A DNA stretch of 64,000 nucleotides from contig NZ_JBPPGI010000006.1 of NCBI RefSeq assembly GCF_051594785.1, forward strand, positions 90,827 to 154,826. Reading direction: 5' to 3'. Every line of letters begins with the position of its first letter. Position 1 is the first letter of the stretch. Position numbers and translations under genes: made by a program. The notes under the pieces were generated by a model that worked only from the letters and a program-made list of their open reading frames with translations, ran no database searches and was not told the DNA's origin. This document shows, piece after piece, positions 37,308 to 64,000 of the stretch. Source of the DNA: Gorillibacterium sp. sgz500922 (GTDB taxonomy: Bacteria; Bacillota; Bacilli; Paenibacillales; NBRC-103111).

Positions 37308-37343
37308 AGCCGTGAACCCCCTGTATCTGTCGTATTGCTATCT

Positions 37344-39955: not shown

Positions 39956-39967
39956 AACAATCGCCGC

Positions 39968-43378: not shown

Positions 43379-43410
43379 GCGCTCTCCGTGCCTCCTCTTG
43401 CGGCTGTCTC

Positions 43411-44601: not shown

Positions 44602-44628
44602 GGGTTCCTCCTTCCCGGTTGCATCCCG

Positions 44629-46844: not shown

Positions 46845-46845
46845 G

Positions 46846-48048: not shown

Positions 48049-48112
48049 GGCGTTCCCCTTCTTCTCCTTGGTCCATTTGATTCCAAAGCGTTCTTCTTCC
48101 CGTGCCCGTGCT

Positions 48113-48718: not shown

Positions 48719-49928
48719 AGGCTTCCCCCTCCAGCAGCAGGCAGAACTTGGCGAGCTCGCCCGCGTGGCGGTCACCGCCGCTCCGCAGGTTCTCCTCCAG
48801 CTCGGCGCGCAGCTCCGGGCGGTCGATCAGGCGGCGGATGCCGGCGGCGATTCCCTCCGCCGTCACCGGCACGACGAGCCCGGTCGCCTCGTCTTCGATC
48901 TGCTTGCGGAAGGACGGAATGTCCGTCACGACAACCGGACGGAACAGGGCCAGCGCTTCCTCCACCGCGATGCAGTGGGCCTCCGTCTTGGAGGGCTGCA
49001 CGTAGATGTCGCAGCGGCTCATGAACGGATAGGGATTGGCCTGCTCGCCGAGCAGCCGGAAACGCCCGGTCAGCTCCAGCTCCTCGGCGCGCTGGCGGAG
49101 CTCGTCGGCCAAGGGACCGGCTCCGACCAGGTTCCAGCGGACCGGATAGCCCTCGTCCCGGAGAATCCGGCAGGCATCCAGTGCGAGCCGGACACCCTTC
49201 TCGTCTCCGAGCCGGGCGACGGTGGCGACGGTGATCCCGGCGAACGAGACGTCGTCCGCCGCCGCTTCCGGCGGCAGCGGCTCCTGGGCCAGCTCGCGGA
49301 CGGCCGTCTCCGAGACGCGGTTGTGGATGACCCGAATCTGCCGGGAGAACTCGGGGAAATACGAGGTCAGCGAATCCCGCGCCGATTCGGCCACCGTGAC
49401 GATGTAATCGCACTTGCCGAAGCTCTTGCGCTCCATCTTCGGGCACGGCCAGCCTTGGCGCTCGCTGTAGCCGTAGTCCATGTGGTTGTAGAGAATCTTG
49501 CGGCCCGCCTTCACCTTCTCGGCCACGTAATAATTGCAGAAGAAGTCGAGGTAGCTGATCGCCGCATCGTAATAGGTCTTCTGCCGGGGAAGCGCCCGGC
49601 GGTAGACCGCCCAGCGCTTGCCCACGTTCTTGCCCTTGCCGGTCTTCCCGACGAGGGCGGCGGCGAGCTTGCCGTACAGCAGCCGGAAGCGGCGCTCCTT
49701 GAGGAGGAACGGCACCGCCTGCCCGACCGGCATCGAGAAGGAAGGAAACAGCGGCGGCAGCACGTTCACCTCCGGCGGAACCATCGGAAACAGCTTGCCG
49801 CTGTGGTCGAAGAGGAGCAGGTCCACCTCATAGCGGTCGTAGTCCAGCTCCGACAGGAGCGTGAGCAGGCTCTTCTCGGCGCCGCCAGTATGCAGGTATT
49901 GGGTGACAAAGAGCAGCCGCTTTTTCAT
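48702..49928 (-). CDS. GT4 glycosyltransferase, paralog 3
   Basis: The start MKKRLLFVTQYLHTGGAEKSLLTLL follows GGAAAGGAAG. The upstream 230 codons of the track ORF are artefactual. Confidence 0.75.
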   Translation of the reverse strand: MKKRLLFVTQYLHTGGAEKSLLTLLSELDYDRYEVDLLLFDHSGKLFPMVPPEVNVLPPLFPSFSMPVGQAVPFLLKERRFRLLYGKLAAALVGKTGKGKNVGKRWAVYRRALPRQKTYYDAAISYLDFFCNYYVAEKVKAGRKILYNHMDYGYSERQGWPCPKMERKSFGKCDYIVTVAESARDSLTSYFPEFSRQIRVIHNRVSETAVRELAQEPLPPEAAADDVSFAGITVATVARLGDEKGVRLALDACRILRDEGYPVRWNLVGAGPLADELRQRAEELELTGRFRLLGEQANPYPFMSRCDIYVQPSKTEAHCIAVEEALALFRPVVVTDIPSFRKQIEDEATGLVVPVTAEGIAAGIRRLIDRPELRAELEENLRSGGDRHAGELAKFCLLLEGEAYEAVV

Positions 49929-49957
49929 GGGTTCGCGTCTTCCTTTCCTTCCGTTGT

Positions 49958-50701
49958 TCACGCCCGCGCCTTCAGCAGCCGGCGCATGCGGGCCACTGCC
50001 GCCGGCCCGAGAAGCCGGGCGATCTGCCGCTTGAGCTCGCTGCGCCGCCGGACGCCGGCGGGCAGCCACGACTTGGCGAAGTGATGGATGGCGTAGCTGT
50101 TCTCCGAGAGGTAATCGGCCCCGTTGATATAATCGTAGGGACAGAAATACGTGCGCGGATAGAACACCGTGCCGTTGTCCAGCTCCTGGTACCGGCCGTT
50201 CGGCACGAAGCCGTGGGTCCGGGCATTTTCCGTAATCCGCTTCGTGTTGGTGGTCAGATCGAGCGTTCCGTCCGCCAGCACGAACGACCGGTCCTCGTAC
50301 TCGTCCAGCAGCTCCTTGATCCACGGATGGCCGGCGCGGGCTGCCATCAGGCCGGTGGGGACATGCTGCTCGTCCTCGAATCCGGAGAAGGCTTCGTGAA
50401 CGAGGAACCGGTCGAGCGGCTTCAGCACCTCGACGTCGGTATCCATGTAGATGCCGCCTTGGGTATACAGGGCATACAACCGAACGTAGTCGCTCACGAA
50501 TGCGTACTTGCCCTGCTCGTAAGCCTCCCGTACATACCGGTTGACCGAGAGATCGAAGGTATCCTCGTTCCACTCCACGAACCGGTATCCGGCGAGCCGC
50601 TTGGGCCAGCTTTCCTGGCACATGCGGATTTTCGCAGGCTTTTCCCCCCGCCCGAACCAGCAGGAATGGACGATTTTGGGGATGGCGTCGGCTTTTTTCA
50701 C
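49958..50701 (-). CDS. GT32-like glycosyltransferase (Gly_transf_sug, DXD motif YMDTD)
   Basis: GTG start after AAAGGAG; ...SDYVRLYALYTQGGIYMDTDVEV... Confidence 0.65.
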   Translation of the reverse strand: MKKADAIPKIVHSCWFGRGEKPAKIRMCQESWPKRLAGYRFVEWNEDTFDLSVNRYVREAYEQGKYAFVSDYVRLYALYTQGGIYMDTDVEVLKPLDRFLVHEAFSGFEDEQHVPTGLMAARAGHPWIKELLDEYEDRSFVLADGTLDLTTNTKRITENARTHGFVPNGRYQELDNGTVFYPRTYFCPYDYINGADYLSENSYAIHHFAKSWLPAGVRRRSELKRQIARLLGPAAVARMRRLLKARA

Positions 50702-50719
50702 GGGATGCTCCTTTCCGTA

Positions 50720-51796
50720 TCAGAACACGAGATAGCGGCTGTTGTATTCGAAGCCGCCGAACGAGATCAGGTTTTCGTACAGGAAAAACAGCAGATAGAA
50801 CATCAAGATCAGGTAATAGACCAGCTTCCGGTCTTTTTCGCGGAACAGCTTGACCACCCAGGGAATCAGAAGCAGCGGATACAGGCCGAAATAAATGGAA
50901 AAGCGGGCGATGATCCAGTTCTGCGTGGCGATCAGCATGACCAGGGCATTGAGGAGAGACAGATTGACGATCGGATCAAGCTCCGGCGCCAAGCTCTTCA
51001 GCCGCTGCCTGCCAAAGAAGGCGATGAGGACCGGCGCCGCCGCCACGACCACGCGGATGGCACTCGCTCCGCCTTCGGAAAAGGTTGAATAATGGCCGTA
51101 CGGGGTATCGGCGATCACCGTAAACAGCGCGCCCATGAACTGGTTGAAGCCCAGGACGATGAGCACGGCTCCGCATGCCATGAGCAGCGTCTTCTTGGTC
51201 CAGGCCGGTCCCCGCACCAGGAAGTAGACCGGCAGCAGCAGGAGCGCGCTGCGGTGAAAGGTCGAGGCGACCAGCACCACGAGGAAGAACCGTTTCCAAT
51301 CGCCGTTCAACATGTATTTGGTTCCGGCAAAAATGATCGCGGCCGCCAGATACTGCCGAATGCCGTTCATCGAGGTGGTGAACGCCCCGGAGGTGATAAA
51401 GACGTAGAGGCTCAGCTCATACATCGTCGAGTAGCGGAAGAGAATCCAGGCGATCAGCCCGCTGGTGGCGACGCCGGTCACCAGGATGAGCAGCTGGGGA
51501 TCGGAGCTCAGCTGCTTGAGCAAAAGCTGTAAAATGTTAAAGCCGAAGTCCTTGCTGTAGTCGATGGTCGCCCAGGAAAAGAAGCCGGTCTTGTACGAGT
51601 ACATGTACGTCGAGGTGTCGCCGATGTTGTTGCGCAAGCCGGCGACCAGCGCGAGCGAGACCGCCGCGATCAGCGCGGGCAGCGCGCTCGGCCGATACCG
51701 GACTCCCGCATCGGTGAGGGCCACCGGATGGGACAGCAGGCGGGCGTACAGGGAAGCGGCATAGACCAGGGCGAGGTTGAACAGCATGATCGTCAT
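50720..51796 (-). CDS. EpsG-family polysaccharide polymerase (Wzy-like membrane protein)
   Basis: The start MTIMLFNL follows AAGGGG; 10-11 TM helices with a large outward loop. Confidence 0.7.
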   Translation of the reverse strand: MTIMLFNLALVYAASLYARLLSHPVALTDAGVRYRPSALPALIAAVSLALVAGLRNNIGDTSTYMYSYKTGFFSWATIDYSKDFGFNILQLLLKQLSSDPQLLILVTGVATSGLIAWILFRYSTMYELSLYVFITSGAFTTSMNGIRQYLAAAIIFAGTKYMLNGDWKRFFLVVLVASTFHRSALLLLPVYFLVRGPAWTKKTLLMACGAVLIVLGFNQFMGALFTVIADTPYGHYSTFSEGGASAIRVVVAAAPVLIAFFGRQRLKSLAPELDPIVNLSLLNALVMLIATQNWIIARFSIYFGLYPLLLIPWVVKLFREKDRKLVYYLILMFYLLFFLYENLISFGGFEYNSRYLVF

Positions 51797-51801
51797 GGCG
51801 G

Positions 51802-52722
51802 TTACCCCTTTGCGGCGCTTTTCCCGGTTCTCAGCGTGGTGGAGCGGTTCGTCGCGTTCAGATAGAGATACAGGAGGAGCCCGGCGGGCAGCGCCAGCAC
51901 GGTATAACCGGGACAAGGCGATTCCCGCAGGAAGCGGCGGTTGCCGCTCATCAGGCTGCTGGAGACGTAATGGACCGTCTCCCGCATCCGCTCCTTCCAG
52001 GTCGGTGCGTAGGTCATCGCCGTCTTGCGGAAGAAGGCGAAGCCGCGCGGGTTGCGCCGGTATTGCTTAATGATGTTAAGGCTCGACCCGTCCTCCAGGT
52101 ATTCGACGACGCACAGCGGCTCGTTCAGGAGGAGGAGCGGGTGCAGCTGATCGATCAGCACGTATTTGTAGCTGAGCGGGCAGTATTTCTCTCCCTCGAA
52201 CAGCGGGTAAGGAGGCGTCCGGCGGGTCAGCTCCGAGCGGTAGACGAGCTTCTTGTCGCCGCGCACCTTGTGGACCCCGTACAGGTCGGTCAGGGTGGAA
52301 GCGGCGACGCCCTCCGGCAGCGGCGTGCCGATGACCGAGCCGTCCGGCGCGATGTCCAGGCCCGCGATGCCCGCCGCCCGGTCGCTGCCGTGCTCGCGCC
52401 AGAAGGAGACGATCGTCTCCACGGCCTTCTCCGGCAGGTAATCGTCGGAGTCGATGCAGACGTTGAGCTCGGTGTCCACCAGCTCGTAAGCGGTGTTGTG
52501 CGCGCCGTGCATGCCTTGGTTCGCCTGGTAATGGTAGCGGATCGGCACGGCGCCTTCGGCGATCCAGCCGCGGACCAGCTCCTCCGTGCCGTCCGTCGAA
52601 CCGTCGTCGACGATCAGCCAGAGGAAGTCCTTCGACGTCTGCCGCTTTAGGCTCTCGTAGCAGGCCGGCAGGATGTAGCCGCGGTTGTAAGTCGGGGTGA
52701 ACACGGTCAGCGTGGGCCGCAC
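51802..52722 (-). CDS. GT2 glycosyltransferase
   Basis: GTG start after AAAGGAGGAAG; LTVFTPTYNRG...DDGSTD. Confidence 0.75.
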   Translation of the reverse strand: MRPTLTVFTPTYNRGYILPACYESLKRQTSKDFLWLIVDDGSTDGTEELVRGWIAEGAVPIRYHYQANQGMHGAHNTAYELVDTELNVCIDSDDYLPEKAVETIVSFWREHGSDRAAGIAGLDIAPDGSVIGTPLPEGVAASTLTDLYGVHKVRGDKKLVYRSELTRRTPPYPLFEGEKYCPLSYKYVLIDQLHPLLLLNEPLCVVEYLEDGSSLNIIKQYRRNPRGFAFFRKTAMTYAPTWKERMRETVHYVSSSLMSGNRRFLRESPCPGYTVLALPAGLLLYLYLNATNRSTTLRTGKSAAKG

Positions 52723-52780
52723 AGATCTTCCTCCTTTTCTTCGCAAGGCCGGGCTTCCGGCCGAAACTCTCGCTCTTCGT

Positions 52781-53884
52781 TCACGCCTCGCGGAGCTGAT
52801 TCCGGTAGTAGTCGCTCAGCCACTCGGCCATCCTCCGCGCGTCATAGCCGCTCGCGGCGATGGCTTCCTGCGTGTCGGCATGCGCCAGCGACAAGCCGAG
52901 AATCCGCTCGGCCCAAGCCTCGGGCGGGGCCTTCAGCGACTCGAAGCCGACGAGGCCGGTCTTATCGACCTCGCGGGTGATCGTATCGGCCACCAGGCAG
53001 GCGAGGCCGGCGGCCTGCGCTTCCACCAGCACGACCGGCAGCCCCTCGAAGAGCGACGGAAACAGGAACAGGTCGAAGCCCTGCAGCAGATCGGGAATAT
53101 CGCCGCGAACACCGAGGAACCGGACCGAGTCGGCGAGGCCCAGGCGGTTCGCCTTCTCCTTCGCCTCCGCGAGAAGCTCCCCTTCCCCCGCCAGCACAAG
53201 CAGGGCGTCGGGCCGTCGGTCGAGCACCGCCCGGAAAATGTCGAGCAGGAACCGGTGGTTCTTCTGCTTGGTGAACCGGCCGATGTGGCCGATCACGAGC
53301 CGGTCGCCAATCCCGAGCTCCGCGCGGATGCGTTCCCGCCGGATGGGATCGAACCGGAAATCCTCGGCGTTGACGGCGTTGTTCAACACCGTCACCGGCC
53401 GCTTGCGGCCGAAGAGCCAGCGCCCGGCGTTCTCGGAGCAGGCGAAGTAATGCGTCGGCTGGTCGCGCATCACCGACCGGGCATAGAGCCGGAAGGGCAG
53501 CTTGTAGTCGAGCGCCAGATCGCTCAAATGGCTGTGCGCGATCCGGCAGGGCACGCCCGCGCGTTTCGCCGCGCGCAGCACGAAGCTGCTGTTCTCGTTG
53601 TTGTGCGCATGCACGATCCGGTAGTCGGGCTGCTCCGCGAAGAAGCGTTCCAGCCGGCGAAAATACTCGCGGTACTTGCCGGGCCGCAGCATCGGCATCC
53701 GGTAGATCCGGCCGCCGAGCGACTCGATCTCGCCGTCGTAGTGGCCGCGCTCCTCGCGGTGAACGAGGAAGTCGAACTGCAGCCGGGACCGGTCGAGCTG
53801 CCGGTAGTAGTTCATCAGCATCGTCTCCAGGCCGCCGCGGTTCATGATCGTCGCCACCTGGAGCACGCGCATCGGTTCTGCCAT
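52781..53884 (-). CDS. GT4 glycosyltransferase (EpsF-like)
   Basis: GT-B fold with an E-x7-E region. Confidence 0.75.
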   Translation of the reverse strand: MAEPMRVLQVATIMNRGGLETMLMNYYRQLDRSRLQFDFLVHREERGHYDGEIESLGGRIYRMPMLRPGKYREYFRRLERFFAEQPDYRIVHAHNNENSSFVLRAAKRAGVPCRIAHSHLSDLALDYKLPFRLYARSVMRDQPTHYFACSENAGRWLFGRKRPVTVLNNAVNAEDFRFDPIRRERIRAELGIGDRLVIGHIGRFTKQKNHRFLLDIFRAVLDRRPDALLVLAGEGELLAEAKEKANRLGLADSVRFLGVRGDIPDLLQGFDLFLFPSLFEGLPVVLVEAQAAGLACLVADTITREVDKTGLVGFESLKAPPEAWAERILGLSLAHADTQEAIAASGYDARRMAEWLSDYYRNQLREA

Positions 53885-53912
53885 GCCTAACGCCTCTTTT
53901 CCTTCATGACGT

Positions 53913-54971
53913 TTATCTCCGCCTCATCCGGTTTGCCGCGGCGAGCAGCGCGTAGAGGCCCGCCGTGAACCGGAGCTTGGCGCACCAGTAGAAGACCCGC
54001 CAGACGGGCGAGCCCTCCGGTTGGAAGCGCGCCAGCGCCGAGCGGAACCGCTCCTCCCGCAGCAGCTCCTGGAGCCGGCTCCGCTTCTCCGCCAAGGAGA
54101 GGCTCTCCCCCGCCGACAGGATGTTGAGCCCGAGTCCCAGAACGCTCAGCGCGATGCGGTTCTCCAGCGCTTCGCGGTAAATGCCGTCCAGCCGATGCTC
54201 GGCCAGAAACTGCTCCATGAGTCCGAAAAGCTGCAAAAACTGCCGGGTAAGCCGCGGATTGAACCCCGAGGTCAGGGATTCCGCGTTCACTCGCCAGTAA
54301 TGGTAGTATGGCGTATGTAAGAAGACGAAGCTGCGGGCCGCCTGCACAACCTGCAGGTTGAACAACGTATCCTCGTTGCTGCCGATCCGCTTGAGATCGG
54401 TAAATTCCGCTTCGGTCTCGCGGATCAGCTCCGCCCGGTACAGCTTGTTCCAGACGGTTCCCCATGCGTCGAGCAGCTCCGGACTGCCCTTCTCGTCGCC
54501 CACCGGGCCGACCAGCCGGCGCAGGATCCGCTCGGCCACCGCTTCGTCCCGGTAGACGGTACGGTCGGCCAGCCCGAAGTCCTTCTCCTTCGCATGGTCG
54601 CCGAATTCGCGGACGTACGAGCACATGACGATGTCGGCGCGGTCGGCGACCGCCGTTCGGTACAGGGCTTCGAACATGCCGGGATCGGCCCAATCGTCGG
54701 GATCGACGAAGCCGATGAAGGCGCCGCCCGCTTCCGCCAGGCCCGCATTGCGGGCGGCGGAGACGCCGGCGTTCGGCTGATCGAGCACCTTGAGCCGGCC
54801 GTCGCGGGAAGCCGCCTCGCGGAGGAGGGCCAGGCTGCCGTCCCGGGAGCCGTCGTTGACGGCGATGATCTCGATGTCCTTCAGGGTTTGGCCAAGCAGG
54901 CTATCCAGGCAGCGGCCGAGGTAGCGCTCCATGTTGTACACCGGAACGATGACGCTCACCAGCGGACCCAT
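53913..54971 (-). CDS. GT2 glycosyltransferase (paralog B of the gene at 45786-46844)
   Basis: MGPLVSVIVPVYNMERYLGRCLDSLLGQTL; near-identical N-terminal signature to paralog A. Confidence 0.8.
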   Translation of the reverse strand: MGPLVSVIVPVYNMERYLGRCLDSLLGQTLKDIEIIAVNDGSRDGSLALLREAASRDGRLKVLDQPNAGVSAARNAGLAEAGGAFIGFVDPDDWADPGMFEALYRTAVADRADIVMCSYVREFGDHAKEKDFGLADRTVYRDEAVAERILRRLVGPVGDEKGSPELLDAWGTVWNKLYRAELIRETEAEFTDLKRIGSNEDTLFNLQVVQAARSFVFLHTPYYHYWRVNAESLTSGFNPRLTRQFLQLFGLMEQFLAEHRLDGIYREALENRIALSVLGLGLNILSAGESLSLAEKRSRLQELLREERFRSALARFQPEGSPVWRVFYWCAKLRFTAGLYALLAAANRMRRR

Positions 54972-54972
54972 G

Positions 54973-56100
54973 CTACACCCAGGCGTACCGGGCGTAGATT
55001 TGGCCCAGCCGCTCCTTGACTTCCTGCACCGAATACGCCGCTACCCGGGCCAGGCTCTCCTCGCCCATCCGGCGGCGCAGCGCTTCGTCCGCCGCCAAAT
55101 CCTCCATGCGGCGGGCGAAGCCGTCCGCATCGTTCGCGTCGACGAGGTAGCCGTTCACGCCGTCCGCTACCAGCTCGTGGTGGCCGCGGTTCTCCGCCGC
55201 GATCACCGGCAGGCCGCTCGCCATCGCCTCCATGATGTTGACCGGCAGACCCTCGCGGAAGCTCGAGGCCACCGCGATATCGCAGGCCGGCAGCAGCTCG
55301 GCGACATCGTCGCGGTAGCCGAGGAAGTCCACGCGGTCCGCGATGCCAAGCCGCTCGGCCAGCTCCCGGCAGGCGGGCAGCAGCGGCCCCGAGCCGGCCA
55401 GCGCGAGCCGGACCGTAGGAGCTCCGGGCTCCTGCCGGACCTTGGAGAGCGCGTGCAGCAGCAGCTGCTGGTTCTTGTTGCGGTTGAATTCGGCGGCATA
55501 GAAGAACAGCAGCCCTTCTTCCGCGAGGCCGAGCGCCCGCCGCCGCCCCGCCTTCTCATCCGAACCGAGCGGCCGGAAGCGGTCGAGCTGAACGCCGACG
55601 CCCGGCACATGGGCGATCTCCGCCGCCTGGAAGTGCCGCCGGAGAGCCAGCCGGTAATCCTCCGAATTGATCGTGATCAGGCAGTCGGTCACCCGTGCGA
55701 GCATTTTCTCCACCGGATAATAGAGCAGCCAGTTGACCAGCGGGGCACCCTTGCAGAAGTGAAAGCCGTGGGCCGTGTAGAGGACTTTCGTTCCCCGCTT
55801 GCGGGCCTTCCAGCCGGCCAGCCGGGCGAGCATGCCGCCCATCGGCGTATGGCAGTGAATGACATCGTAAGCGCCCCGTTCCATCACCGCCGACAGCTCG
55901 CGGTACGCCTTCACGTTCCCCGCCTTAAGCGGCGAGCGCTCGAAGGGAATGTCGAATTTCTGGTCGACGTGGGGCAACGAACGCCCTCCCTTGGCCGCAA
56001 CGTGAACCTCCCAGCCCTGCTCCTTGAACCATTCCAGGTAGGGAAGATGAAACTTCTCTACATGCGTATCGACCGTTGCCACAAACAATATGGCCGGCAC
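54973..56100 (-). CDS. GT4 glycosyltransferase (EpsD-like)
   Basis: The start is taken at the second GTG, which has a GAGGAGG RBS; the first GTG at 56109 abuts the RBS. Confidence 0.7.
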   Translation of the reverse strand: MPAILFVATVDTHVEKFHLPYLEWFKEQGWEVHVAAKGGRSLPHVDQKFDIPFERSPLKAGNVKAYRELSAVMERGAYDVIHCHTPMGGMLARLAGWKARKRGTKVLYTAHGFHFCKGAPLVNWLLYYPVEKMLARVTDCLITINSEDYRLALRRHFQAAEIAHVPGVGVQLDRFRPLGSDEKAGRRRALGLAEEGLLFFYAAEFNRNKNQQLLLHALSKVRQEPGAPTVRLALAGSGPLLPACRELAERLGIADRVDFLGYRDDVAELLPACDIAVASSFREGLPVNIMEAMASGLPVIAAENRGHHELVADGVNGYLVDANDADGFARRMEDLAADEALRRRMGEESLARVAAYSVQEVKERLGQIYARYAWV

Positions 56101-56121
56101 CGCCTTCACCTCCTCTTCGAA

Positions 56122-57957
56122 TCAGCGGGACGACACGACGGCAAGCTCCGCTTCGCCGGTATCCGGCGCGCGGCGGCTGGCGATCCGCAGCAGGGCTTCG
56201 CGCAGCTCCGTCTTTTCCATGCCCGCATAGCCCTTCAGCAGCTCCTGAATTTCCTTCATGCGCAGCTCCGCCGTCTTGCCGATGTAGATCTTCGGATAGA
56301 CCTGCTCCTCGTGGACCTCGTCCTTGCCGAGCAGCTCCTCGAACAGCTTCTCCCCGGGCCGGATGCCCGAGTATTCGATCCCGATGTCCTCGACGGAATT
56401 GCCGGAGAGGCGGATCAGGTTGACGGCGAGATCGGTGATCTTCACGGGATCGCCCATGTCGAGCACGAAGATTTCGCCGCCGCGGGCGAGCGCGCCCGCT
56501 TGAATGACGAGCCGCGAGGCTTCGGGAATCGTCATGAAATAGCGGATCATCTCCGGATGGGTGACCGTCACCGGGCCGCCCTTCTCGATCTGCTTCTTGA
56601 ACAGCGGGATGACGCTGCCCCGGCTGCCCAAGACATTGCCGAAGCGGACCGCGACGAATTTGGTGAAGCTGCGCTGGTCGAGGTCCTGGATGATCATCTC
56701 GGCGAGCCGCTTGGCCGCGCCCATGACGCTCGTCGGGTTGACCGCTTTGTCCGTGGAGATCATCACGAACGTCCGGACCCCGGAAGCGCTGGCGGCGTTC
56801 GCCGCGTTCAGGGTGCCGAGGACGTTGTTCTTGACCGCTTCCTCCGGGTTGCGTTCCATCAAGGGAACGTGCTTGTGCGCCGCCGCATGGTAAACGACGT
56901 CGGGGCGGTAGGTCTTCATCACCGCCATCATCTTGGCGGCGTCCTGAAGATCGGCGATTTCCGGCACGAATTTGATGCCGGAATCCTTGAACTGCTCCCT
57001 CAGCTCCATCTCGATGGAATAGATGCTGTTCTCTCCATGCCCGAGCAGCACCAGCAGCTGGGGCTTGAACCGGGACACCTGGCGGCAGATCTCCGAACCG
57101 ATGGAGCCGCCCGCACCGGTGACCAGGACGATTTTGCCGGTGACGGACTCGGAGATCTTATCCATGTCCATCTCCACTGGCTCGCGACCGAGCAGGTCCT
57201 CCACCTGCACGTCGCGGACCTGGTTCACCGAAACCTTGCCGGAGACAATGTCCTCGATCATCGGCAGAATCTGCGTCTTGGCCGCCGTCTTGGCGCATTC
57301 CTCGTAGATGCGCTGAATTTCCCGACGCCTCAGCGAGGGAATGGCGATGAGGATCGTATGGATGCGCATCTCCCGGGTGATCCGCTCGATGTCGCCGAGA
57401 CCGCCGACGACCGGAACGCCGAGGATGTCGAGGTTCCGCTTGTTCGGATTGTCGTCGACGAAGGCCACCGGCATCAGGTCCGTCTCCCCGCTGTTCAGGA
57501 GCTGGCGGACGATCATCGTGCCGCCCGATCCGGCGCCGACGATCAGCGTGCGCTTCTTCGTATTCGCCTTGCGGCCCGCCGTATGGAGCAGCCGCCAGGA
57601 AAGCCGCGTACCGCCGATGAGCAGCACATGCAGCATCCAGGTGATGGCGAGCATTCGGAAGTAAACGGTGCCCATCATCGCCGCCTGGACGACGACGGTG
57701 GCGGCGATCGAGAGGCTGACCGCCTTCAGGATGGCGGCGAGCTCGCTCACGCTGGCGTATTCCCAGGCTTTTTTGTACAGCTTATAGCGGAAGGCGAAGA
57801 AGTGGTGGCTGACGAGAAGCGTCAGCGAGGTCAGAATGAGCGGCGTCTCATTGACGGCCATGCCGGCGTGCGTCAGGTACCGGCTGAAGAAGATTGCCGT
57901 AAGGACCACAAAGGAATCCGTAAAAAACAAAAAAGACAGCCGTTGTCGATAGGTCAC
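56122..57957 (-). CDS. Membrane-bound UDP-sugar 4,6-dehydratase/epimerase (CapD/EpsC/PglF-like polysaccharide biosynthesis protein)
   Basis: GTG start after GGGAGGA; four N-terminal TM helices, then two Rossmann domains (GAGGSIGSE). Confidence 0.8.
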   Translation of the reverse strand: MTYRQRLSFLFFTDSFVVLTAIFFSRYLTHAGMAVNETPLILTSLTLLVSHHFFAFRYKLYKKAWEYASVSELAAILKAVSLSIAATVVVQAAMMGTVYFRMLAITWMLHVLLIGGTRLSWRLLHTAGRKANTKKRTLIVGAGSGGTMIVRQLLNSGETDLMPVAFVDDNPNKRNLDILGVPVVGGLGDIERITREMRIHTILIAIPSLRRREIQRIYEECAKTAAKTQILPMIEDIVSGKVSVNQVRDVQVEDLLGREPVEMDMDKISESVTGKIVLVTGAGGSIGSEICRQVSRFKPQLLVLLGHGENSIYSIEMELREQFKDSGIKFVPEIADLQDAAKMMAVMKTYRPDVVYHAAAHKHVPLMERNPEEAVKNNVLGTLNAANAASASGVRTFVMISTDKAVNPTSVMGAAKRLAEMIIQDLDQRSFTKFVAVRFGNVLGSRGSVIPLFKKQIEKGGPVTVTHPEMIRYFMTIPEASRLVIQAGALARGGEIFVLDMGDPVKITDLAVNLIRLSGNSVEDIGIEYSGIRPGEKLFEELLGKDEVHEEQVYPKIYIGKTAELRMKEIQELLKGYAGMEKTELREALLRIASRRAPDTGEAELAVVSSR

Positions 57958-58013: not shown

Positions 58014-58544
58014 AACCCCTTCGAAGCCGATCCCAGGCGGCGCCCGGCGAAAGACATCAGGCTCGCGTAAACGCAGAGTGCGCCCGAAATGACGAAGATC
58101 GGACGCACTTGCGGTTCGCTTGCTTACCTGTGCGGTTTCCAGGGAGGAATCCGCACAAGTAAAGAAACGAAACCGCAGGCTTCGCCGCCGCTTGAGGAGC
58201 AGGCCGCGCGGGCGGGCCGCGCGCAAGGCGCGCGGAGCCGGCAATCGCGGCAGTCGCCTTAAGCGATGGGCGGCGAACATTCGGTTTCAATCGTAATCCG
58301 GGGCATCCAACCCCGCCTCACGCCACACCCTCGACGACCCGCGTCTAAGGTCCTGCGACCCACAGCATGACCGAGTGCCTCCATTGATATCGGCCAGGAG
58401 ACATCGCCGCAGCTTGGGTTCATCCGGCTAATGACCGGAAATCCGTCCACTGTTGTTCGCTATGTAAATCATTATCGTTCTTAATATAGAACAGCGAGGC
58501 AAAAGGAAAGCCCTCCGTATCGTCGGCGGGAGAGCCGGGCGAGG
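58014..58544 (-). ncRNA. About 530 nt of structured non-coding spacer between the BY-kinase and capD-like genes (candidate EAR-type anti-termination RNA or internal promoter)
   Basis: No credible ORF. Hairpins visible include TGTGCGGattcctccctggaaaCCGCACA. The position is equivalent to the epsB-epsC spacer that carries the EAR element in Bacillus. Confidence 0.35.
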
Positions 58545-59204
58545 CTACTTCTCGTTGAGCACCGTACCGAGCAGCGTGGCCCCGGCGAACTCCAGGGTCA
58601 TCTTGGCGTTCAGCGCCGCATCTTCCTTGGTCCGGCCCTGTTCCAGGACCAACAACACGGCGTCGCTGCAATGCGCCAAAGACTTGACCTCGAAGGCTTC
58701 CAGCACCGAGGGAGCATCGATGAGGACCATATCGTAGTGGCTGCCCAGCGTGTCCATGATGCCGGTCAGGACTCCATCGTCCAGGAGATCGTTGGCTCCG
58801 AAGCCGTAGGTACCGGCCGGCATGACGTCCAGCTCGCCGATCTCGGTCGGATGAACCGTATCCTTCAGCTCCTTGCGGCCGGACAGGACATCGGACAATC
58901 CGGGCTGTCTCTCCATGCCGAGCAGCTTGGTGATTCCCGGACGGCGGACATTCGCGTCCACCACCAGCACCTTGCTGCCCTTCACCGCCATCGAGGAAGC
59001 CAGGTTCATGACCAGCGTGGTCTTCCCTTCCCCGCCCTCGGGCGAAGTGACAAGAAGCGACTTCTTCTTCTGGCTTTCAAACAGCAGGCGAATATTGGCG
59101 CGGATGCTGCGGAATTGCTCGGAAGCGCGCGCGGCGGGCTGCAGGTAGCTGATCAGACTCCGCCGGGCGGGGAGACTGGATGCGACCGCTTCGTTAAGAT
59201 TCAA
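58545..59204 (-). CDS. BY-kinase (tyrosine-protein kinase, CapB/EpsB/YwqD-like ATPase)
   Basis: Walker A (SPEGGEGKTT), Walker A' and Walker B. TTG start after GAGGAGGGAG; overlaps the modulator gene by 11 nt. Confidence 0.8.
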   Translation of the reverse strand: MNLNEAVASSLPARRSLISYLQPAARASEQFRSIRANIRLLFESQKKKSLLVTSPEGGEGKTTLVMNLASSMAVKGSKVLVVDANVRRPGITKLLGMERQPGLSDVLSGRKELKDTVHPTEIGELDVMPAGTYGFGANDLLDDGVLTGIMDTLGSHYDMVLIDAPSVLEAFEVKSLAHCSDAVLLVLEQGRTKEDAALNAKMTLEFAGATLLGTVLNEK

Positions 59205-59907
59205 CGCTCTCCCTCCTCGTGAGTTGAATTCGCTGATGGGTCTTGGCGCGGAACTTCACCTTTCGAATGCGGGACACTTGCCCGAGCACCGGCAGGCCAA
59301 GCACTTCCTTCGCCCGCTTCTCCGAGCGGATCGCTTCGTCGAGGGTATCGCGGAGGAAGGCGGCTCCGATGCCCAGCACCAAGCCGGCGATGAGGCCGAT
59401 GAGGATCATCCGGTTTTGCTCCGGCGGATTGATCGGCTGTGGCGAACCGTCCTTCTTGGCTTCGGATAAAATGGTCACGTCGCTGAAGTTCAGGAGCGTG
59501 CCGATGGTCGCCTTGTATTGCTTCACGGTGGAGTTGGCGATAGCCGCGGCGAGCGGCTGGCTGCGGTCGGTAACGGTGACCAGCACCACCTGGGTGTTGT
59601 CGACGCTGGAGACCGAAATCTGGCTCCGCAGAGCGGAGACGGAGCGGTCGAGCGAGAGTTCATCCGCTACCTTTTGCAGGACGACGGGCTCCTTGAGAAC
59701 CACCTTGAGCGTATTGATGAAATCGGTATTCGAATGGATGATGATGCGGGCCGTCGCCTGATACAGCGGTGCATGCGGCCTGTTGGCATAGTAGGCGCCA
59801 AGCCCGGTGCCCAACAGAGTAACGAGCGACAGGATCAGCCAGCGCCTGCGCAGGGCGAGCAGAAGGTCACGGATGTTGATCTCTCGGGGGATACGCATAT
59901 TGTCCAT
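59194..59907 (-). CDS. Polysaccharide chain-length determinant / BY-kinase transmembrane modulator (Wzz/CapA/EpsA-like)
   Basis: The start MDNMRIPREI follows CAGGAGAAT; two TM helices flank a periplasmic domain; first gene of the EPS operon. Confidence 0.75.
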   Translation of the reverse strand: MDNMRIPREINIRDLLLALRRRWLILSLVTLLGTGLGAYYANRPHAPLYQATARIIIHSNTDFINTLKVVLKEPVVLQKVADELSLDRSVSALRSQISVSSVDNTQVVLVTVTDRSQPLAAAIANSTVKQYKATIGTLLNFSDVTILSEAKKDGSPQPINPPEQNRMILIGLIAGLVLGIGAAFLRDTLDEAIRSEKRAKEVLGLPVLGQVSRIRKVKFRAKTHQRIQLTRRESVES

Positions 59908-59939
59908 GGGGATTCTCCTGATCTTTATAATGAACTCGT

Positions 59940-59975
59940 TACTCATTATAGTTCTTAATAGCGAACATGTCAAAC
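59940..59975 (-). promoter_or_regulatory. EPS operon promoter: TTGACA, 17-nt spacer, TATAAT, with the inverted repeat GTTC-N8-GAAC filling the spacer
   Basis: A consensus sigma-A hexamer pair read on the minus strand, about 30 nt upstream of the first EPS gene. The inverted repeat resembles Bacillus SinR operators (GTTCTYT half-sites). Confidence 0.6.
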
Positions 59976-60006
59976 CATGAAAACTCCATTTTCAAAATCA
60001 CCGGCG

Positions 60007-60345
60007 TCAGCCGCCGATTTCGTCCTCGTCCTCTTTTTCCTGCCGCTGCATCTGGTACAACCGGACGAAATCCTCCTTGCGCATTCCATCCTGAATGGCG
60101 GTGTAAATCAGCGTTTTCCATTCCTCATCCAGCGGATCGGCGCCCAGGTACTCTTCCCCGAGCAAAAATTCCAAATGGGTATCCAGCGATTCGGCCAGCT
60201 TGGAGAGCATGAGCAGGGACGGGTTGTTTTGCAGCTTGCGCTCGATATGGCTGAGGTAGGACTTGGAGATATCGGCCATCTCGGCGAGCTCGGTGATGGT
60301 CAGCCCCTTCTGCTCCCGCAGGTATTTAATTCGATCTCCGATCAT
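60007..60345 (-). CDS. XRE-family transcriptional regulator resembling SinR (HTH plus C-terminal multimerisation helix)
   Basis: MIGDRIKYLREQKGLTITELAEMADISKSYLSHIERKLQNNPS aligns by eye with the B. subtilis SinR N-terminus. RBS AAGGAGAAAG. The start lies 20 nt inside the 3' end of the ABC exporter gene. Confidence 0.7.
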   Translation of the reverse strand: MIGDRIKYLREQKGLTITELAEMADISKSYLSHIERKLQNNPSLLMLSKLAESLDTHLEFLLGEEYLGADPLDEEWKTLIYTAIQDGMRKEDFVRLYQMQRQEKEDEDEIGG

Positions 60346-62158
60346 AGCTTTCTCCTTCGTCGGATTGGATAAAATCGTTCCCTCTTTGCATCCCGAGCAG
60401 CCGGCGGAACATGCCCCGCCTCTCCCGGGCCAAGCTGGAATACTCGCCGCACTGCACGACCCGGCCCTGATCGAGGACCACCACTTGATCCGCGTCGCGG
60501 ATCGTGGTCAGCCGGTGGGCGATGACGATCAGCGTGATTCGGCCTCTCAGCCGGAACAGCGCATCCTGAATCTTGGCTTCGTTCTCGCCGTCGAGGGCGC
60601 TCGTCGCCTCGTCGAGCACGAGAACCGCAGGGTCCCGGAGGAGGGCTCTCGCGAGCACCAGCCGCTGGCGCTCGCCGCCGGACAGCCGCACCCCGCGGTC
60701 GCCCAGCACGGTGTCGAGCCCCATCGGCAGCCTGGCGACAAAGTCGGAGGCGGCGGCCAGCTCCAGAACCTCCCAGATCCGCTCGTCGCTTGCCTCCGGC
60801 TGAACGAGGAGCAGGTTGTCGCGGATGCTGGCGTTGAACAGGAACGGGTCCTGCGACACGTAGCTGACCGTCTGCCGGAAGCGGCGGATCGCAGCGCCCT
60901 CCAGCGGCGTCCCGTCCACCAGAATCCGCCCGTCCTCGGGCACGATGAGGCCCATGATGAGGTCGGCCAGCGTGCTCTTGCCGGCGCCCGAGCGTCCGAC
61001 GACCGCCGTCATCCGGTTGGCCGGAATCGTCAGGGTGATCCCCGCGAGGGCATAGGGGCCTTCGCCCCGCTCGTAGCGGTAATTCACGTCCTCGAGTTCG
61101 ATCGCCTCGGTAAGCCGCAGCGGTTCGCCTTCCAAGGCTCCGATCCGTTCCGCCGACAGCCGGCATTCCTCCTGCAGCCCGCGCAGGCTGCGGAACGCCG
61201 GTAGGCTTGCCGACAGCTGCTCCAGGTTCATCTGGATGTTCATGAACCGCGGCCACAGCCGGGAGAAGATCGCCACGACGATGATCAGCTGCCCTGCCGG
61301 CGTCTTCAGCCACGCCACGGAAGCGAAGAGGAAGAACGCGATAAGCCCGGTGGAAGCGAGCTTATAGACCATCTGAGAGTTGGAGCGCAGCTTAACGTAG
61401 CCGTCCTGCTCCTTCTGCAGCTTGCCGGACTCCTGCCGCATCCACTCGAGGCGCGAGCCTTCCAGCCGGTTGCTCTTAATGTCCTTAATGCCGTTGATCT
61501 GCTCGGTGATGCCGGCGAGGTAGCCCTGCGACATCTCCGTCGTCTGCTTGCCGAGCGCGAGCGCCTTGCCGAGCGAGCGCTTGGAGAGGAACGCGAGCGC
61601 GAGCCCGCAGACCACGACGAAGGCCGTGACCTGCCAGGACAGCCAGAGCGCAATCGCCACCTGAAGCGCCGTGAACAGCACGTTGGTTACAAGCGAGAGG
61701 AACAGGTTGATGCCCGCTCCGACCCGTGCCAGCTCGGCGGTCATCGTGTTGACCAGATCGGAGCGCCGCCGCTTCAGGAAGAAAGCCCAGTCGGCCATCA
61801 AGAGATCGCGGTAGACGGTGAAGCGCAGGTGATGCACGAACCCCTGATGGATGCGCGCGTTCTGAATCGTGAACCTTCGCTGAAGCAGGTTCTGGACCAA
61901 GGCCAGCATCACAAAAATTCCCAACACCGTCAGCAGGCCGGCCATCCCGGACAGGCCCTGAAGAAACGAGAACGCCTGGAACAGGGGATGGCTCGAAGCC
62001 GAATAGCTGATGATTCCGCTGATGCCCAGCATGGGAATTAATAGGATCAGACCGATGCCGTCCAGCAAGCTGATCGCGAGCATGCCGGCCATGTTGGCGT
62101 ACAGGACCGAACCGGAATAAGCCGCCAGTTGTTTGACATAATGCCGAATTTCCTTCAT
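60326..62158 (-). CDS. Lasso peptide ABC exporter (D protein; fused TMD-NBD, type I exporter)
   Basis: The start MKEIRHYVKQL follows GGGAGGAAG and overlaps the B2 stop (ATGA). Six TM helices, then Walker A GRSGAGKST, the signature LSGGERQR and Walker B. The 80 codons upstream in the track ORF are artefact. Confidence 0.8.
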   Translation of the reverse strand: MKEIRHYVKQLAAYSGSVLYANMAGMLAISLLDGIGLILLIPMLGISGIISYSASSHPLFQAFSFLQGLSGMAGLLTVLGIFVMLALVQNLLQRRFTIQNARIHQGFVHHLRFTVYRDLLMADWAFFLKRRRSDLVNTMTAELARVGAGINLFLSLVTNVLFTALQVAIALWLSWQVTAFVVVCGLALAFLSKRSLGKALALGKQTTEMSQGYLAGITEQINGIKDIKSNRLEGSRLEWMRQESGKLQKEQDGYVKLRSNSQMVYKLASTGLIAFFLFASVAWLKTPAGQLIIVVAIFSRLWPRFMNIQMNLEQLSASLPAFRSLRGLQEECRLSAERIGALEGEPLRLTEAIELEDVNYRYERGEGPYALAGITLTIPANRMTAVVGRSGAGKSTLADLIMGLIVPEDGRILVDGTPLEGAAIRRFRQTVSYVSQDPFLFNASIRDNLLLVQPEASDERIWEVLELAAASDFVARLPMGLDTVLGDRGVRLSGGERQRLVLARALLRDPAVLVLDEATSALDGENEAKIQDALFRLRGRITLIVIAHRLTTIRDADQVVVLDQGRVVQCGEYSSLARERRGMFRRLLGMQRGNDFIQSDEGESYDRRSN

Positions 62159-62691
62159 CGTGCTTCCTCCCGAAGCCTGCCGCGAACCGCCGGGTCCAGT
62201 CGGGACGGCTTGGCGAATTTGCCGACCGTGGTAAACCTTCTCATTTCCTCCGCGCCGGTGACGTACCGGTCGCCGCTGCGCAGCCAGGCATGCGCCGCCA
62301 GGCCGCCCGTTTCGTCCCGCCCGGTTCCCAGGTACAGCGTGCAGCCGATGCCCCGCCGCTCCAGCATCCTCAGGCCGGCCACGGCGCGGGTGAGGCACAT
62401 GCTGCTCCAGGGCGTATGCCGGCTGGCGGCCGCAATCGCGTCGGCGACCCGGCCGACGATGGCCCGCTCCGCCTCCGGCGCCCGCTCCGAGGGCGTCTCG
62501 CGCTCCCGCTCGCCGAGCGACGGAGCGAGGCGCGCGAACGGCCGGAGCAGCGCCAGCCGGGCCCGGCCGAGCTCGAAGAACGCCTCGGCGAGGAGCCGCC
62601 GGTTTCCGGCGGGCAGCGCGAGGAGCACCCGCGCCGGACGCAGCCGGCCTTTCAGCCTGCCGACGAGCCGTGTCCGCGGCGCCCCGCTCAT
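62155..62691 (-). CDS. Lasso peptide biosynthesis B2 protein (transglutaminase-like cysteine protease, leader peptidase)
   Basis: The start MSGAPRTRLVGRL overlaps the B1 stop (ATGA). N-terminal ...RRLLAEAFFELGRARLALLRPFARLA... The catalytic Cys (SMCLTRAVAG) ... His (AAHAWL) arrangement of PF13471. Confidence 0.75.
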   Translation of the reverse strand: MSGAPRTRLVGRLKGRLRPARVLLALPAGNRRLLAEAFFELGRARLALLRPFARLAPSLGERERETPSERAPEAERAIVGRVADAIAAASRHTPWSSMCLTRAVAGLRMLERRGIGCTLYLGTGRDETGGLAAHAWLRSGDRYVTGAEEMRRFTTVGKFAKPSRLDPAVRGRLREEAR

Positions 62692-62978
62692 ACGGCTTCG
62701 ATCAGGCCTTCGCGCAGGAGCAGCTCGATGAAGCCGCCGACCTGGCGCGAGCATTCCTCCGGCTCCACCTCGTACTCCTCGGTGAGGCGCTCAATCACAT
62801 CCTCGGTGCGGGCGGGCTCGGCGAAGCTGCGCCAGATTTCGCCGCCGATCTCGCCGAGGTTGTAGTAGTTGCCGTTCTGCACGCTCAGCATGACCGTCTC
62901 GCCGTCCATGTCGCTCACAATATTGCCCGGGGCCTGCCGCAGCAGGACGCGGGACAGGTCCTCCGTTCGGTTCGTCAT
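62688..62978 (-). CDS. Lasso peptide biosynthesis B1 protein (PqqD-like RiPP recognition element)
   Basis: MTNRTEDLSRVLLRQAPGNIVSDMDGETVMLSVQNGNYYNLGEIGGEIWRSF...EEYEVEPEECSRQVGGFIELLLREGLI is the PqqD/RRE pattern. RBS GAAAGGAGGAGAAGGG. The start overlaps the kinase stop. Confidence 0.75.
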   Translation of the reverse strand: MTNRTEDLSRVLLRQAPGNIVSDMDGETVMLSVQNGNYYNLGEIGGEIWRSFAEPARTEDVIERLTEEYEVEPEECSRQVGGFIELLLREGLIEAV

Positions 62979-63916
62979 CCCTTCTCCTCCTTTCGGGTTT
63001 CCGCCACGATGCGGTCGGCCAGCTCGTGCGCGGTGAAGCCTTCTTCCGGCCGAATCAGCCGGTAGAGAGGGACCGTCTCGGCCAGCCTTGCGGTGACTTG
63101 AAAATGCCAGTCCAGCCGGTTCATCCGGCGCAGGAACAGGTTGCGGTAGGTATGGTCGTACAGCAGGCGCATGCGGGCGAGGCCGCGCACCGGCTCCAGC
63201 CTCGGGGCCGCAACGGGGCCCTTCGTCAGCTCGAAGATTCCGCCGAGCGGCAGCTCGTGGGCCGCGAACTCGCACCCGACCGGCACGGCGTATTTCGTCT
63301 CCCGCTCGAACAGGGGCTTCAGCCCGGCATTCCCGCGCCCGAGGGCCTCGAGGCTCTCCTGCCACAGCTTCTGCTGCGGGTAGGACGGCGTCACCCGCGG
63401 CGGGTCCGCGCCATCGGTGTGCACCGGGATCACGTCGTCGCTCACCAACGGCAGGCCGCGGTCCATCAGCGCCCGGGCGAGCGTCGACTTGCCCATGCCC
63501 GATTCGCCCACGACGGCGTAAGCCTTACCGCCGATGGCGACGGCGCTTCCGTGTAGCGGCAGGATGCTCCGCTGCAACAAGATGGCGCCCATGCAGGTGC
63601 CGAGGATATATAAGCGAACCTTGTCCATATCGGCTGCGGGTACCGGGGAGACCCGGATGGTCCGGCCCTCCCGCACCTCGAACAAGGCGGTATCCGGAAT
63701 GTGGACGAGGAGGGTGTCCCCTTCCGCCTGGATCTTGCGGTCCGAGCGCTTCATGCGCTCCCACTCCTCCGCAAGCGGCTCCAGCCGGATCTCAATGTCC
63801 CCTCCTTCGCCGGCCCCCGGGATGACGGAGAGCTCCGGAAACGGCAGATCGCTTACGAGCCGAAAGCCGAAGGCCTCCGCCCTCCATTCGTTCTTCGTCA
63901 GTTGCAACGCCTTCAC
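62975..63916 (-). CDS. HPr kinase/phosphorylase-like protein (lasso precursor Ser-kinase type, as in paeninodin-class clusters)
   Basis: P-loop VVGESGMGKSTLARAL, as in HprK. GTG start; sits immediately upstream of B1 with an overlapping stop/start. Confidence 0.65.
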   Translation of the reverse strand: MKALQLTKNEWRAEAFGFRLVSDLPFPELSVIPGAGEGGDIEIRLEPLAEEWERMKRSDRKIQAEGDTLLVHIPDTALFEVREGRTIRVSPVPAADMDKVRLYILGTCMGAILLQRSILPLHGSAVAIGGKAYAVVGESGMGKSTLARALMDRGLPLVSDDVIPVHTDGADPPRVTPSYPQQKLWQESLEALGRGNAGLKPLFERETKYAVPVGCEFAAHELPLGGIFELTKGPVAAPRLEPVRGLARMRLLYDHTYRNLFLRRMNRLDWHFQVTARLAETVPLYRLIRPEEGFTAHELADRIVAETRKEEKG

Positions 63917-64000
63917 CTCAATCGGACAAGAATACGGATCAATGATAAGGAAAAGCCCTTATGCTTCATTTCGAAGGATAAGGGCTGCCAGCCGAAATGG

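Follow-up and report, generated by a model that had tools for sequence, protein, structure and literature searches.

Repression of the exopolysaccharide (EPS) operon eps by SinR, the position of the paralogous gene slrR beside eps, and the presence of the EAR RNA within eps operons are established. The high-affinity inverted repeat of SinR is GTTCTCTAAAGAGAAC, and the residues responsible for SinR tetramerization are Glu97, Tyr101, Trp104, and Arg105 (PMC3163267); the motif of the SinR-SlrR heteromer of Bacillus subtilis has been reported as GTTCWTTATATRA (bioRxiv 10.1101/2025.01.06.631544). Paeninodin-like lasso peptide clusters and LPP clusters, for their part, are often embedded in capsular polysaccharide loci (PMC13381572, 2026). 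In the same study, stationary phase was found to bring a synchronous rise of the lasso B1 gene and an eps gene of Paenibacillus alginolyticus, and paeninodin-type lasso peptides were described as having no known biological role, with a link to biofilm offered as speculation; SinR is unmentioned in its main text, HTH_3 (28 of 126 neighborhoods) and SinI (14 of 126) appearing as supplementary-table counts only (PMC13381572). Here, we describe a locus in which a SinR-family regulator appears to connect a lasso peptide operon with an EPS operon. It is located in a 64,000-nucleotide stretch of Gorillibacterium sp. sgz500922 (contig NZ_JBPPGI010000006.1, positions 90,827 to 154,826), which is referred to below as the window. 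With a probability that we put at about 0.55, it is proposed that the lasso genes and the regulator form an autoregulated operon and that EPS production is co-repressed with it, the regulator acting on operators that both promoters share.

The regulator and the elements that follow it are these.

60345..60007, minus strand: SinR-family paralog regulator, 112 amino acids (aa), ATG start, assigned by Pfam, PDB match, and fold.
59973..59945, minus strand: P_eps, sigma-A-type promoter, TTGACA-17-TATAAT, a 12/12 match whose hexamers are kept in 10 loci.
59966..59951, minus strand: operator O1, GTTCGCTATTAAGAAC, 26.3 bits, at the same position in all 10 loci.
59935..59920, minus strand: operator O2, GTTCATTATAAAGATC, 22.5 bits, conserved.
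58492..58477, minus strand: operator O3, GTTCTATATTAAGAAC, between epsB and the EAR RNA, 24.5 bits, in 10/10 loci.
58455..58463, plus strand: extra half-site, GTTCGCTAT, near O3.

Like SinR, which is 111 aa in length and about 42 to 44% identical to it over the whole protein, the regulator displays a two-domain architecture, with an XRE-type helix-turn-helix (HTH) domain at residues 1 to 66 and a C-terminal SinI-type helical hook at about residues 72 to 110. The former is recognized by Pfam as HTH_3 (4.7e-17; 62 bits against a cut-off of 23), whereas the SinI domain match across residues 72 to 93 is weak and remains below threshold (16.8 bits against 31.4). The best PDB sequence match is SinR itself (1b0n; E=2e-20, residues 1 to 108 against 1 to 110), and alignment to the SinR DNA-binding domain alone yields an E value of about 1e-14 (phmmer). 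An AlphaFold2 model of the protein (mean predicted local distance difference test score, pLDDT, of 83) comprises five N-terminal and two C-terminal helices, the latter formed by residues 74 to 85 and 90 to 110. When this model was compared with known structures by Foldseek, the top match was again SinR (1b0n_A; 105 columns aligned, template-modeling scores of 0.66/0.71), and its DNA-binding domain is superimposed on that of DNA-bound SinR (3zkc_B) with a root mean square deviation of 0.6 Å. Sequence and model together support the view that the regulator is a full-length SinR-family protein consisting of an HTH domain and a SinI-type hook. The original prediction, made from the letters of the window, had recognized a resemblance to the SinR N terminus, which is borne out by the 1b0n match and the predicted fold and extends over the full length of the protein.

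Despite this overall likeness, the regulator differs from SinR at positions of known or presumed functional importance. In an alignment of 24 proteins, in which canonical SinR proteins of Paenibacillus and Bacillaceae were included, the latter carry the C-terminal motif (Q/E)FKEFLEFxKW(K/R), whereas the regulator and its close relatives carry DFVRLYQMQRQ; at the four SinR tetramerization positions, canonical proteins possess E, F/Y, W, and K/R, and the regulator possesses R, M, Q, and E. Residue 33 of the recognition helix, which is Ser in SinR and Lys in SlrR, is a His throughout the regulator subfamily, in which the entire DNA-binding surface from S27 to S43, His33 included, is invariant. 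The protein also fails the NCBIfam equivalog for SlrR, NF046032, by a wide margin (79.7 bits against a cut-off of 250), matching only positions 1 to 108 of the 149 in the model and only one of its hooks, in keeping with its 112 aa and single hook as opposed to the 152 aa and two hooks of SlrR. On these comparisons, the regulator is not a canonical SinR but a member of a distinct SinR/SlrR-family paralog clade linked to eps.

The genetic setting likewise recalls both systems without matching either. As with SinR, the target is an EpsA-O-type operon with an EAR RNA, and the operator is of the form GTTC-N8-GAAC; unlike sinR, the regulator gene has no adjacent sinI, lies directly upstream of and co-directional with eps rather than beside tapA, and coexists with a separate canonical SinR clade within the same bacterial family. 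As with B. subtilis slrR, a SinR paralog lacking the SinR dimer-dimer residues is found right beside eps, and the promoter of its own transcription unit is associated with SinR-type operators, as expected of a feedback loop; unlike slrR, which is divergent from eps, the gene is co-directional with it and appears to be the last cistron of an operon specifying a ribosomally synthesized and posttranslationally modified peptide (RiPP).

Evidence for a regulatory connection with EPS production comes from the short region between the regulator and epsA. The -35 hexamer of P_eps (TTGACA, 59973..59968) begins 33 nt beyond the TGA stop codon of the regulator (60009..60007) and is followed, after a spacer of 17 nt, by the -10 hexamer TATAAT (59950..59945); it had been predicted about 35 nt past the stop, and P_eps proved to be the sole promoter-like site on the minus strand within 58500..64000. 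Of the 17 spacer positions, 16 are taken up by O1 (in plus-strand form, GTTCTTAATAGCGAAC), whose GTTC-N8-GAAC geometry is identical to that of the SinR inverted repeat cited above. O2 is located 31 bp downstream of O1 in the window (30 to 31 bp across loci) and spans the predicted positions +4 to +19, a numbering that assumes an eps transcription start near 59938. A 16-bp consensus, GTTCkyTATwAAGAAC, describes these operators, and a weight matrix built exclusively from the sites of other genomes, from which those of the window were excluded, returned three matches of at least 18 bits in the 64-kb window (59951, 59920, and 58477), all at regulatory positions, against a chance expectation of 0.02 per dinucleotide shuffle and a best score of 19.4 bits in 100 shuffles. 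Further GTTC-N8-GAAC matches at 61859, 56853, and 50567 were dismissed as chance, being situated within coding sequence, possessing GC-rich centers, and scoring no more than 12.5 bits; on the plus strand, the 9/12 resemblance to a promoter at 59924..59952 probably arises from the AT-rich palindromes of the operator region in which it lies.

Comparison across genomes reinforces this assignment. When the intergenic regions between the regulator and epsA were aligned, near-complete conservation was evident from the -35 hexamer to about +25, including spacer positions which are not constrained by the promoter itself, and no conservation was evident upstream of -35. The design TTGAC(a/t)-N-[GTTC-N8-GAA(C/T)]-TAnnnT is present in all 10 loci examined, representing Gorillibacterium, Paenibacillus, and Neobacillus, so that the GTTC/GAAC inverted repeat that had been noticed in the spacer is not only present with SinR-repeat geometry but footprinted in 10 loci.

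Upstream of the regulator, and transcribed in the same direction, are genes with the content of a paeninodin-type lasso cluster (split B1 and B2, an HprK-like kinase, and an ABC exporter, all recognized by Pfam).

63985..63947, minus strand: hairpin followed by a U-run (UUUUCCUU), upstream of K, -19 kcal/mol, z = -3.3.
63916..62975, minus strand: K, HPr-kinase-like lasso kinase of the paeninodin type (Pfam Hpr_kinase_C; NCBIfam HprK-related families).
62978..62688, minus strand: B1, PqqD-like RiPP recognition element (RRE) protein, 96 aa (Pfam PqqD, 1.6e-16).
62691..62155, minus strand: B2, transglutaminase-like leader peptidase, 178 aa (Pfam Transglut_core3, 2.7e-23).
62158..60326, minus strand: D, lasso ABC exporter, 610 aa (Pfam ABC_membrane and ABC_tran; start and stop verified).
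60346..60358, minus strand: Shine-Dalgarno sequence of the regulator, GAAGGAGAA-N4-ATG, inside the 3′ end of D, invariant in six loci.

K, B1, B2, and D are chained by 4-nt overlaps of the ATGA type, and D, which is 54 to 88% identical to the D genes of homologous lasso clusters, terminates at a TAA codon (60328..60326) that sits 20 nt within the open reading frame (ORF) of the regulator, in agreement with the earlier placement of the regulator start within the last 20 nt of the exporter gene. Both this overlap and the Shine-Dalgarno sequence are unchanged in six loci, even though protein identity falls to 48 to 55% and the D tail around GAAGGAGAA diverges. The overlap as such therefore stands, but the strict translational coupling that had been read from it does not appear to be required, since the regulator possesses its own strong, conserved ribosome binding signal. 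No promoter-like site scoring at least 9/12 was detected on the coding strand from 60346 to 64000, nor was any detected on that strand between P_lasso (the promoter preceding the C gene; see below) and P_eps in the window or in the related loci L001 and L006 (related loci are cited here by such numbers where they need to be told apart), and no terminator-like site was found between the regulator and P_eps in the window. The proposed unit from the kinase through B1, B2, and D to the regulator is thus tightly packed, with no promoter-like site found inside it, and the regulator is probably co-transcribed with the lasso genes.

The cyclase (C) and precursor (A) genes of the window genome lie beyond base 64000. 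Their syntenic counterparts were found in L001, L002, L005, and L006 (an example precursor is MKKEWKQPELEVLSVQMTMAGPGKAFPDSFIEDEDEVAHLNHS), and in L001, L002, and L006, a hairpin equivalent to that upstream of K is located 3′ of gene A. Probably, this element attenuates transcription and so determines how much precursor is made relative to the enzymes. Read-through past such a hairpin is a common arrangement in RiPP operons, and from the conservation of the hairpin behind the precursor gene, it follows that expression of K, B1, B2, D, and the regulator probably depends on read-through.

A protein 100% identical to the regulator is recorded at NCBI for Gorillibacterium sp. sgz500922. The gene order of the locus is shared by Gorillibacterium sp. 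CAU 1737, G. timonense, three metagenome contigs, Paenibacillus mendelii, and P. aurantiacus, in which a beta-helix protein, the cyclase C, a precursor A of 42 to 43 aa ending in Ser, and K are followed by B1, B2, D, the regulator (with the exact 20-nt overlap), Wzz, a tyrosine kinase, an epsC-like gene, and the rest of eps. Both the order C-A-K-B1-B2-(N)-D and the precursor ending in Ser are also those of paeninodin and pseudomycoidin clusters (PMC6993621, PMC13381572), with which this locus further shares its placement in a capsular or EPS region, co-induction with an eps gene having been reported there (PMC13381572). B2 is absent between B1 and D in P. mendelii (L005, 7811-10020) and in P. 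aurantiacus (L006, 7889-10020); because pseudomycoidin can be produced without the leader peptidase, these clusters may still function (PMC6993621).

Of particular relevance to the proposed regulation is the promoter preceding the C gene in five relatives, P_lasso, which consists of TTGACA-17-TA(A/C)ACT with an extended -10 TG. Its -35 hexamer is abutted by the palindrome (at least 14 bits in four loci and degenerate in L006), and a perfect GTTC-N8-GAAC is located about 9 nt past the -10 hexamer in 5/5 relatives. In the Gorillibacterium-type loci, palindromes with less typical centers also occur upstream of the beta-helix gene (L001, 1672 and 1840; L002, 1072; L008, 1729); they are absent from the Paenibacillus loci, and the beta-helix gene may be a further member of the regulon.

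In the reading that we favor, the 112-aa protein, as a dimer and either alone or with a SinR-family partner, would bind the 16-bp GTTC-N8-GAAC palindrome. At the eps promoter, O1 in the spacer and O2 over the predicted start would be occupied, and RNA polymerase would therefore be excluded from an otherwise constitutively strong P_eps; a third copy, O3, precedes the EAR antiterminator RNA. The lasso operon C-A-K-B1-B2-D of Gorillibacterium and two Paenibacillus species is situated between an operator-flanked promoter and the regulator gene, which would constitute its last cistron, behind the attenuator hairpin located 3′ of gene A. This lasso-regulator operon is presumed to be repressed by that protein too, or by a complex of which it is part, and hence to be negatively autoregulated, and antagonism of the repressor would release lasso peptide and EPS production together, the likely route of relief being a SinI-type partner that engages the helical hook. 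We infer both the identity of the operator-binding protein and the sign of the regulation from sequence features.

Because the operator flanks the lasso promoter in relatives, autoregulation with co-repression is preferred to a circuit in which lasso expression shuts off EPS production. The wiring originally put forward, in which EPS was repressed by a regulator whose synthesis is tied to lasso peptide export, is accordingly retained with regard to its SinR-type operator and revised with regard to its outcome, in that EPS would be repressed along with the lasso genes and not when the lasso exporter is expressed, operators of the same type being present also at the lasso promoter of relatives. 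Co-regulation agrees with what has been published for P. alginolyticus, in which a paeninodin-like B1 gene is induced in synchrony with an eps gene (PMC13381572). That report also qualifies the view that such wiring had not been described: the regulator and the operators are unreported, whereas the placement of lasso clusters in polysaccharide loci and their co-induction had already been published (PMC13381572).

A number of observations weigh against this proposal. The lasso promoter of the window genome itself is located outside the window, beyond base 64000, so that its operators are presumed by analogy with the relatives. Since the SinR tetramerization residues are not conserved, it is doubtful that the regulator alone could loop O1/O2 to O3. 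No SinI-like antagonist was detected in the window or in the Gorillibacterium loci by tblastn with a SinI sequence and the hook domain. Canonical sinR-sinI pairs are encoded 2.5 to 10 kb upstream in P. aurantiacus and P. swuensis, and in P. mendelii, a SinI-domain gene is present at the edge of the locus (L005, position 1) with a canonical SinR on the same contig; in those Paenibacillus species, canonical SinR could be the occupant of the operators. Among the half-sites, several are exact instances of the SinR consensus of B. subtilis, GTTCTYT, and O2-type sites match the SinR-SlrR heteromer motif at 11 to 12 of its 13 positions. Finally, the lasso genes of L005 hold several weak 9/12 promoter-like sites, close to the background of this AT-richer sequence, and they may include an internal promoter.

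The chief alternative is a role resembling that of SlrR, according to which a canonical SinR encoded elsewhere holds the palindromes, and the paralog, itself SinR-repressed and not on its own a repressor of eps, heteromerizes with SinR through its hook and titrates or re-targets it. Lasso co-expression would then stabilize a matrix-ON state, and the effect on EPS could be opposite in sign to that originally proposed. The slrR gene of B. subtilis, a neighbor of epsA-O, has a divergent promoter at which SinR represses it, and the closest homolog of the regulator in Neobacillus drentensis is similarly divergent from its eps unit; the loss of the SinR dimer-dimer residues, the nearby sinR and sinI genes, and the operator resemblances listed above all point the same way. 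The protein itself, with its single hook and its score far below the SlrR equivalog cut-off, does not fit this role well. Moreover, the half-site consensus here is GTTCkyTAT rather than GTTCTYT, the commonest half-site, GTTCGTTAT, departing from the latter at position 5, and the recognition helix with its invariant His33 suggests that the subfamily has operators of its own. Neither a second SinR-like ORF nor a sinR or sinI gene was detected in the window and the Gorillibacterium loci, and no Gorillibacterium-named protein is present among the 120 matches listed of 266 to canonical SinR, many entries of which are nameless. We therefore regard an SlrR-like role as somewhat unlikely, yet deserving of serious consideration.

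The organization of the canonical genes is itself instructive. At L006 1396-2185 and L041 7131-7941, a canonical sinR, which is SinI-domain positive and retains the tetramer residues, is accompanied by sinI near the conserved beta-helix gene, and the SinI-domain genes of both loci adjoin the canonical sinR and not the paralog. Canonical sinR-sinI and the eps-linked paralog together form what may be termed a “matrix island,” no equivalent of which was seen in the Gorillibacterium loci.

How the regulator came to be associated with the lasso genes can be judged from members of its clade which lack that association. A profile search of the wider family retrieved hundreds of proteins with 50 to 64% identity to the regulator, mostly from Paenibacillus, canonical SinR proteins being about 40% identical. 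Genomic context was examined for five members: in P. swuensis and P. arenilitoris, the paralog is immediately upstream of and co-directional with Wzz-eps, with no lasso cluster; in two metagenome contigs, it is placed likewise, with paeninodin-type and/or LPP-type RiPP clusters nearby but unfused; and in Neobacillus drentensis, the closest homolog and an HTH-Wzz-eps unit point away from each other, in an arrangement recalling B. subtilis slrR. In total, the paralog is located immediately upstream of an epsA-like gene in nine loci. As the clade precedes eps in many Paenibacillaceae without a lasso cluster, the link between regulator and eps appears to be old and ordinary, and it is the lasso fusion alone that is, by this comparison, lineage specific. 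The simplest history would be one in which the lasso operon came between an autoregulated promoter and the regulator gene.

LPP-type RiPP clusters (NTP_transf_5, ScmC-type kinase, PqqD, and ABC) are found divergent from the paralog in L044 (5104-9687) and L045 (2293-6753). Copies of the palindrome occur in the intergenic regions shared by cluster and paralog (L044, 9387, 9462, and 9922; L045, 6643 and 6735), which suggests that the regulon includes LPP clusters too.

The same loci bear on the proposition that the lasso genes and the regulator are transcribed separately, the latter from a weak promoter in the 3′ part of D or past the attenuator, in which case the overlap with D would be an accident of packing and the regulator merely the local repressor of the eps operon, as in lasso-free Paenibacillus. 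A homologous regulator without a fused lasso gene is indeed present in L041, L043, L044, and L045, and in at least two of these, it possesses its own promoter with the operator-in-spacer design (L043, position 9891; L044, position 9922). In addition, the TAA codon of D falls within the conserved ATT-AAA codons of the regulator sequence MIGDRIK, so that the exact overlap may be a by-product, and the hairpin and U-run upstream of K would lower read-through from P_lasso. These considerations are countered by the absence of any coding-strand site of at least 9/12 upstream of the regulator in the regions scanned above, by the maintenance of zero intergenic space in six loci whose proteins have diverged to about 50% identity, and by a lasso promoter bearing the same operators, which points to deliberate integration; independent transcription is consequently considered quite unlikely. 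That the regulator activates rather than represses the eps promoter is highly improbable, for although some XRE-family proteins activate transcription, the promoter whose spacer is filled by O1 is a perfect 12/12 match with an optimal 17-nt spacing and has no need of an activator, the predicted start is itself overlaid by a second site, and MerR-type activation from within the spacer requires spacers of 19 to 20 nt.

The operon that P_eps is predicted to drive comprises the following elements.

59907..59194, minus strand: epsA-like Wzz chain-length modulator, first gene of the EPS operon (Pfam Wzz).
59204..58545, minus strand: epsB-like tyrosine autokinase (Pfam AAA_31/ParA/CbiA).
58409..58300, minus strand: EAR (epsC) RNA, processive antitermination element (Rfam RF01735).
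57957..34264, minus strand: remaining EPS operon (Pfam scans).
48048..46846, minus strand: lasso-type tailoring gene N within the EPS operon (PF14907, NTP_transf_5; Pfam 4.3e-59).

The EAR RNA scores 105.5 bits against a gathering threshold of 42 (E=2.9e-17) and is located in the 590-nt gap between epsB and epsC, the same position as in B. subtilis, from which it is concluded that the locus represents a true EpsA-O-type operon. Downstream of this element are genes for an epsC-like dehydratase, GT4 and GT2 glycosyltransferases, an EpsG polymerase, an EpsL-like Bac_transf protein, a pyruvyl transferase, a GH88 protein, an epimerase, an ATP-grasp protein, a HAD protein, and a DegT aminotransferase (35439..34264). 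The hallmarks of EpsA-O-type operons are therefore present, namely, the epsA/epsB modulator-kinase pair, EAR, glycosyltransferases, EpsG, the EpsL-like protein, the pyruvyl transferase, and the aminotransferase, and the 25-kb operon of the original prediction corresponds to about 25.6 kb of same-strand polysaccharide genes (59907 to 34264).

O3 occupies a position just upstream of the EAR RNA which, together with a T-run that always precedes it, is kept in all 10 loci; it may serve as a roadblock, as a looping anchor, or as a weak internal promoter. With respect to the last of these options, the sequence GATAAT follows O3 in the window and in L005, yet no -10 or -35 element is conserved across loci, and O3 was not retained as an internal promoter.

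A second connection between the two pathways is provided by gene N, which directly follows the EpsL-like Bac_transf gene (48775..48113, minus strand). Along its whole length, its product shares 53% identity with the N protein encoded between B2 and D in the lasso cluster of metagenome locus L044, as against only 24% with an LPP-type N protein. PsmN-type enzymes glycosylate the phosphorylated C terminus of the lasso peptide (PMC6993621), and it appears from these similarities that the glycosylating enzyme of the lasso pathway is, in this genome, encoded in and expressed with the EPS operon. Relative to published clusters, the locus is thus distinguished by a SinR-family terminal cistron, by operators shared between lasso and eps promoters, and by the displacement of N by about 12 kb into the eps operon.

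A full-text literature search for lasso peptides together with SinR returned nothing relevant. Three features seem not to have been reported before: a clade of eps-linked paralogs and its operator-in-spacer promoter, for which no characterization was found in the papers searched; the use of one operator type at the promoters of both lasso and eps genes, the regulator being the terminal cistron of the lasso operon; and the presence of the N gene within the eps operon.

The locus offers a concrete regulatory link between lasso peptides and biofilm, composed of a common operator type, a candidate repressor as the last lasso gene, and N in the EPS operon. Were the SlrR-like alternative to prove true, it would exemplify a bistable matrix switch that has recruited a RiPP operon. 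The eps-linked paralog clade is widespread in Paenibacillaceae and could help in understanding and engineering EPS production. It may further be suggested, very tentatively and as a proposition that we hold to be doubtful, that the biofilm-matrix program has paeninodin-type lasso peptides among its dedicated components or signals. If so, the lasso operon would belong to the SinR-paralog regulon and expression of N would be confined to that of the EPS operon; the phospho-glycosylated peptide, once exported, would be decorated with or anchor EPS-derived sugars or, alternatively, would act as an extracellular signal that feeds back on the SinR-type switch. Such a role would give the paeninodin-type lasso class a physiological function.

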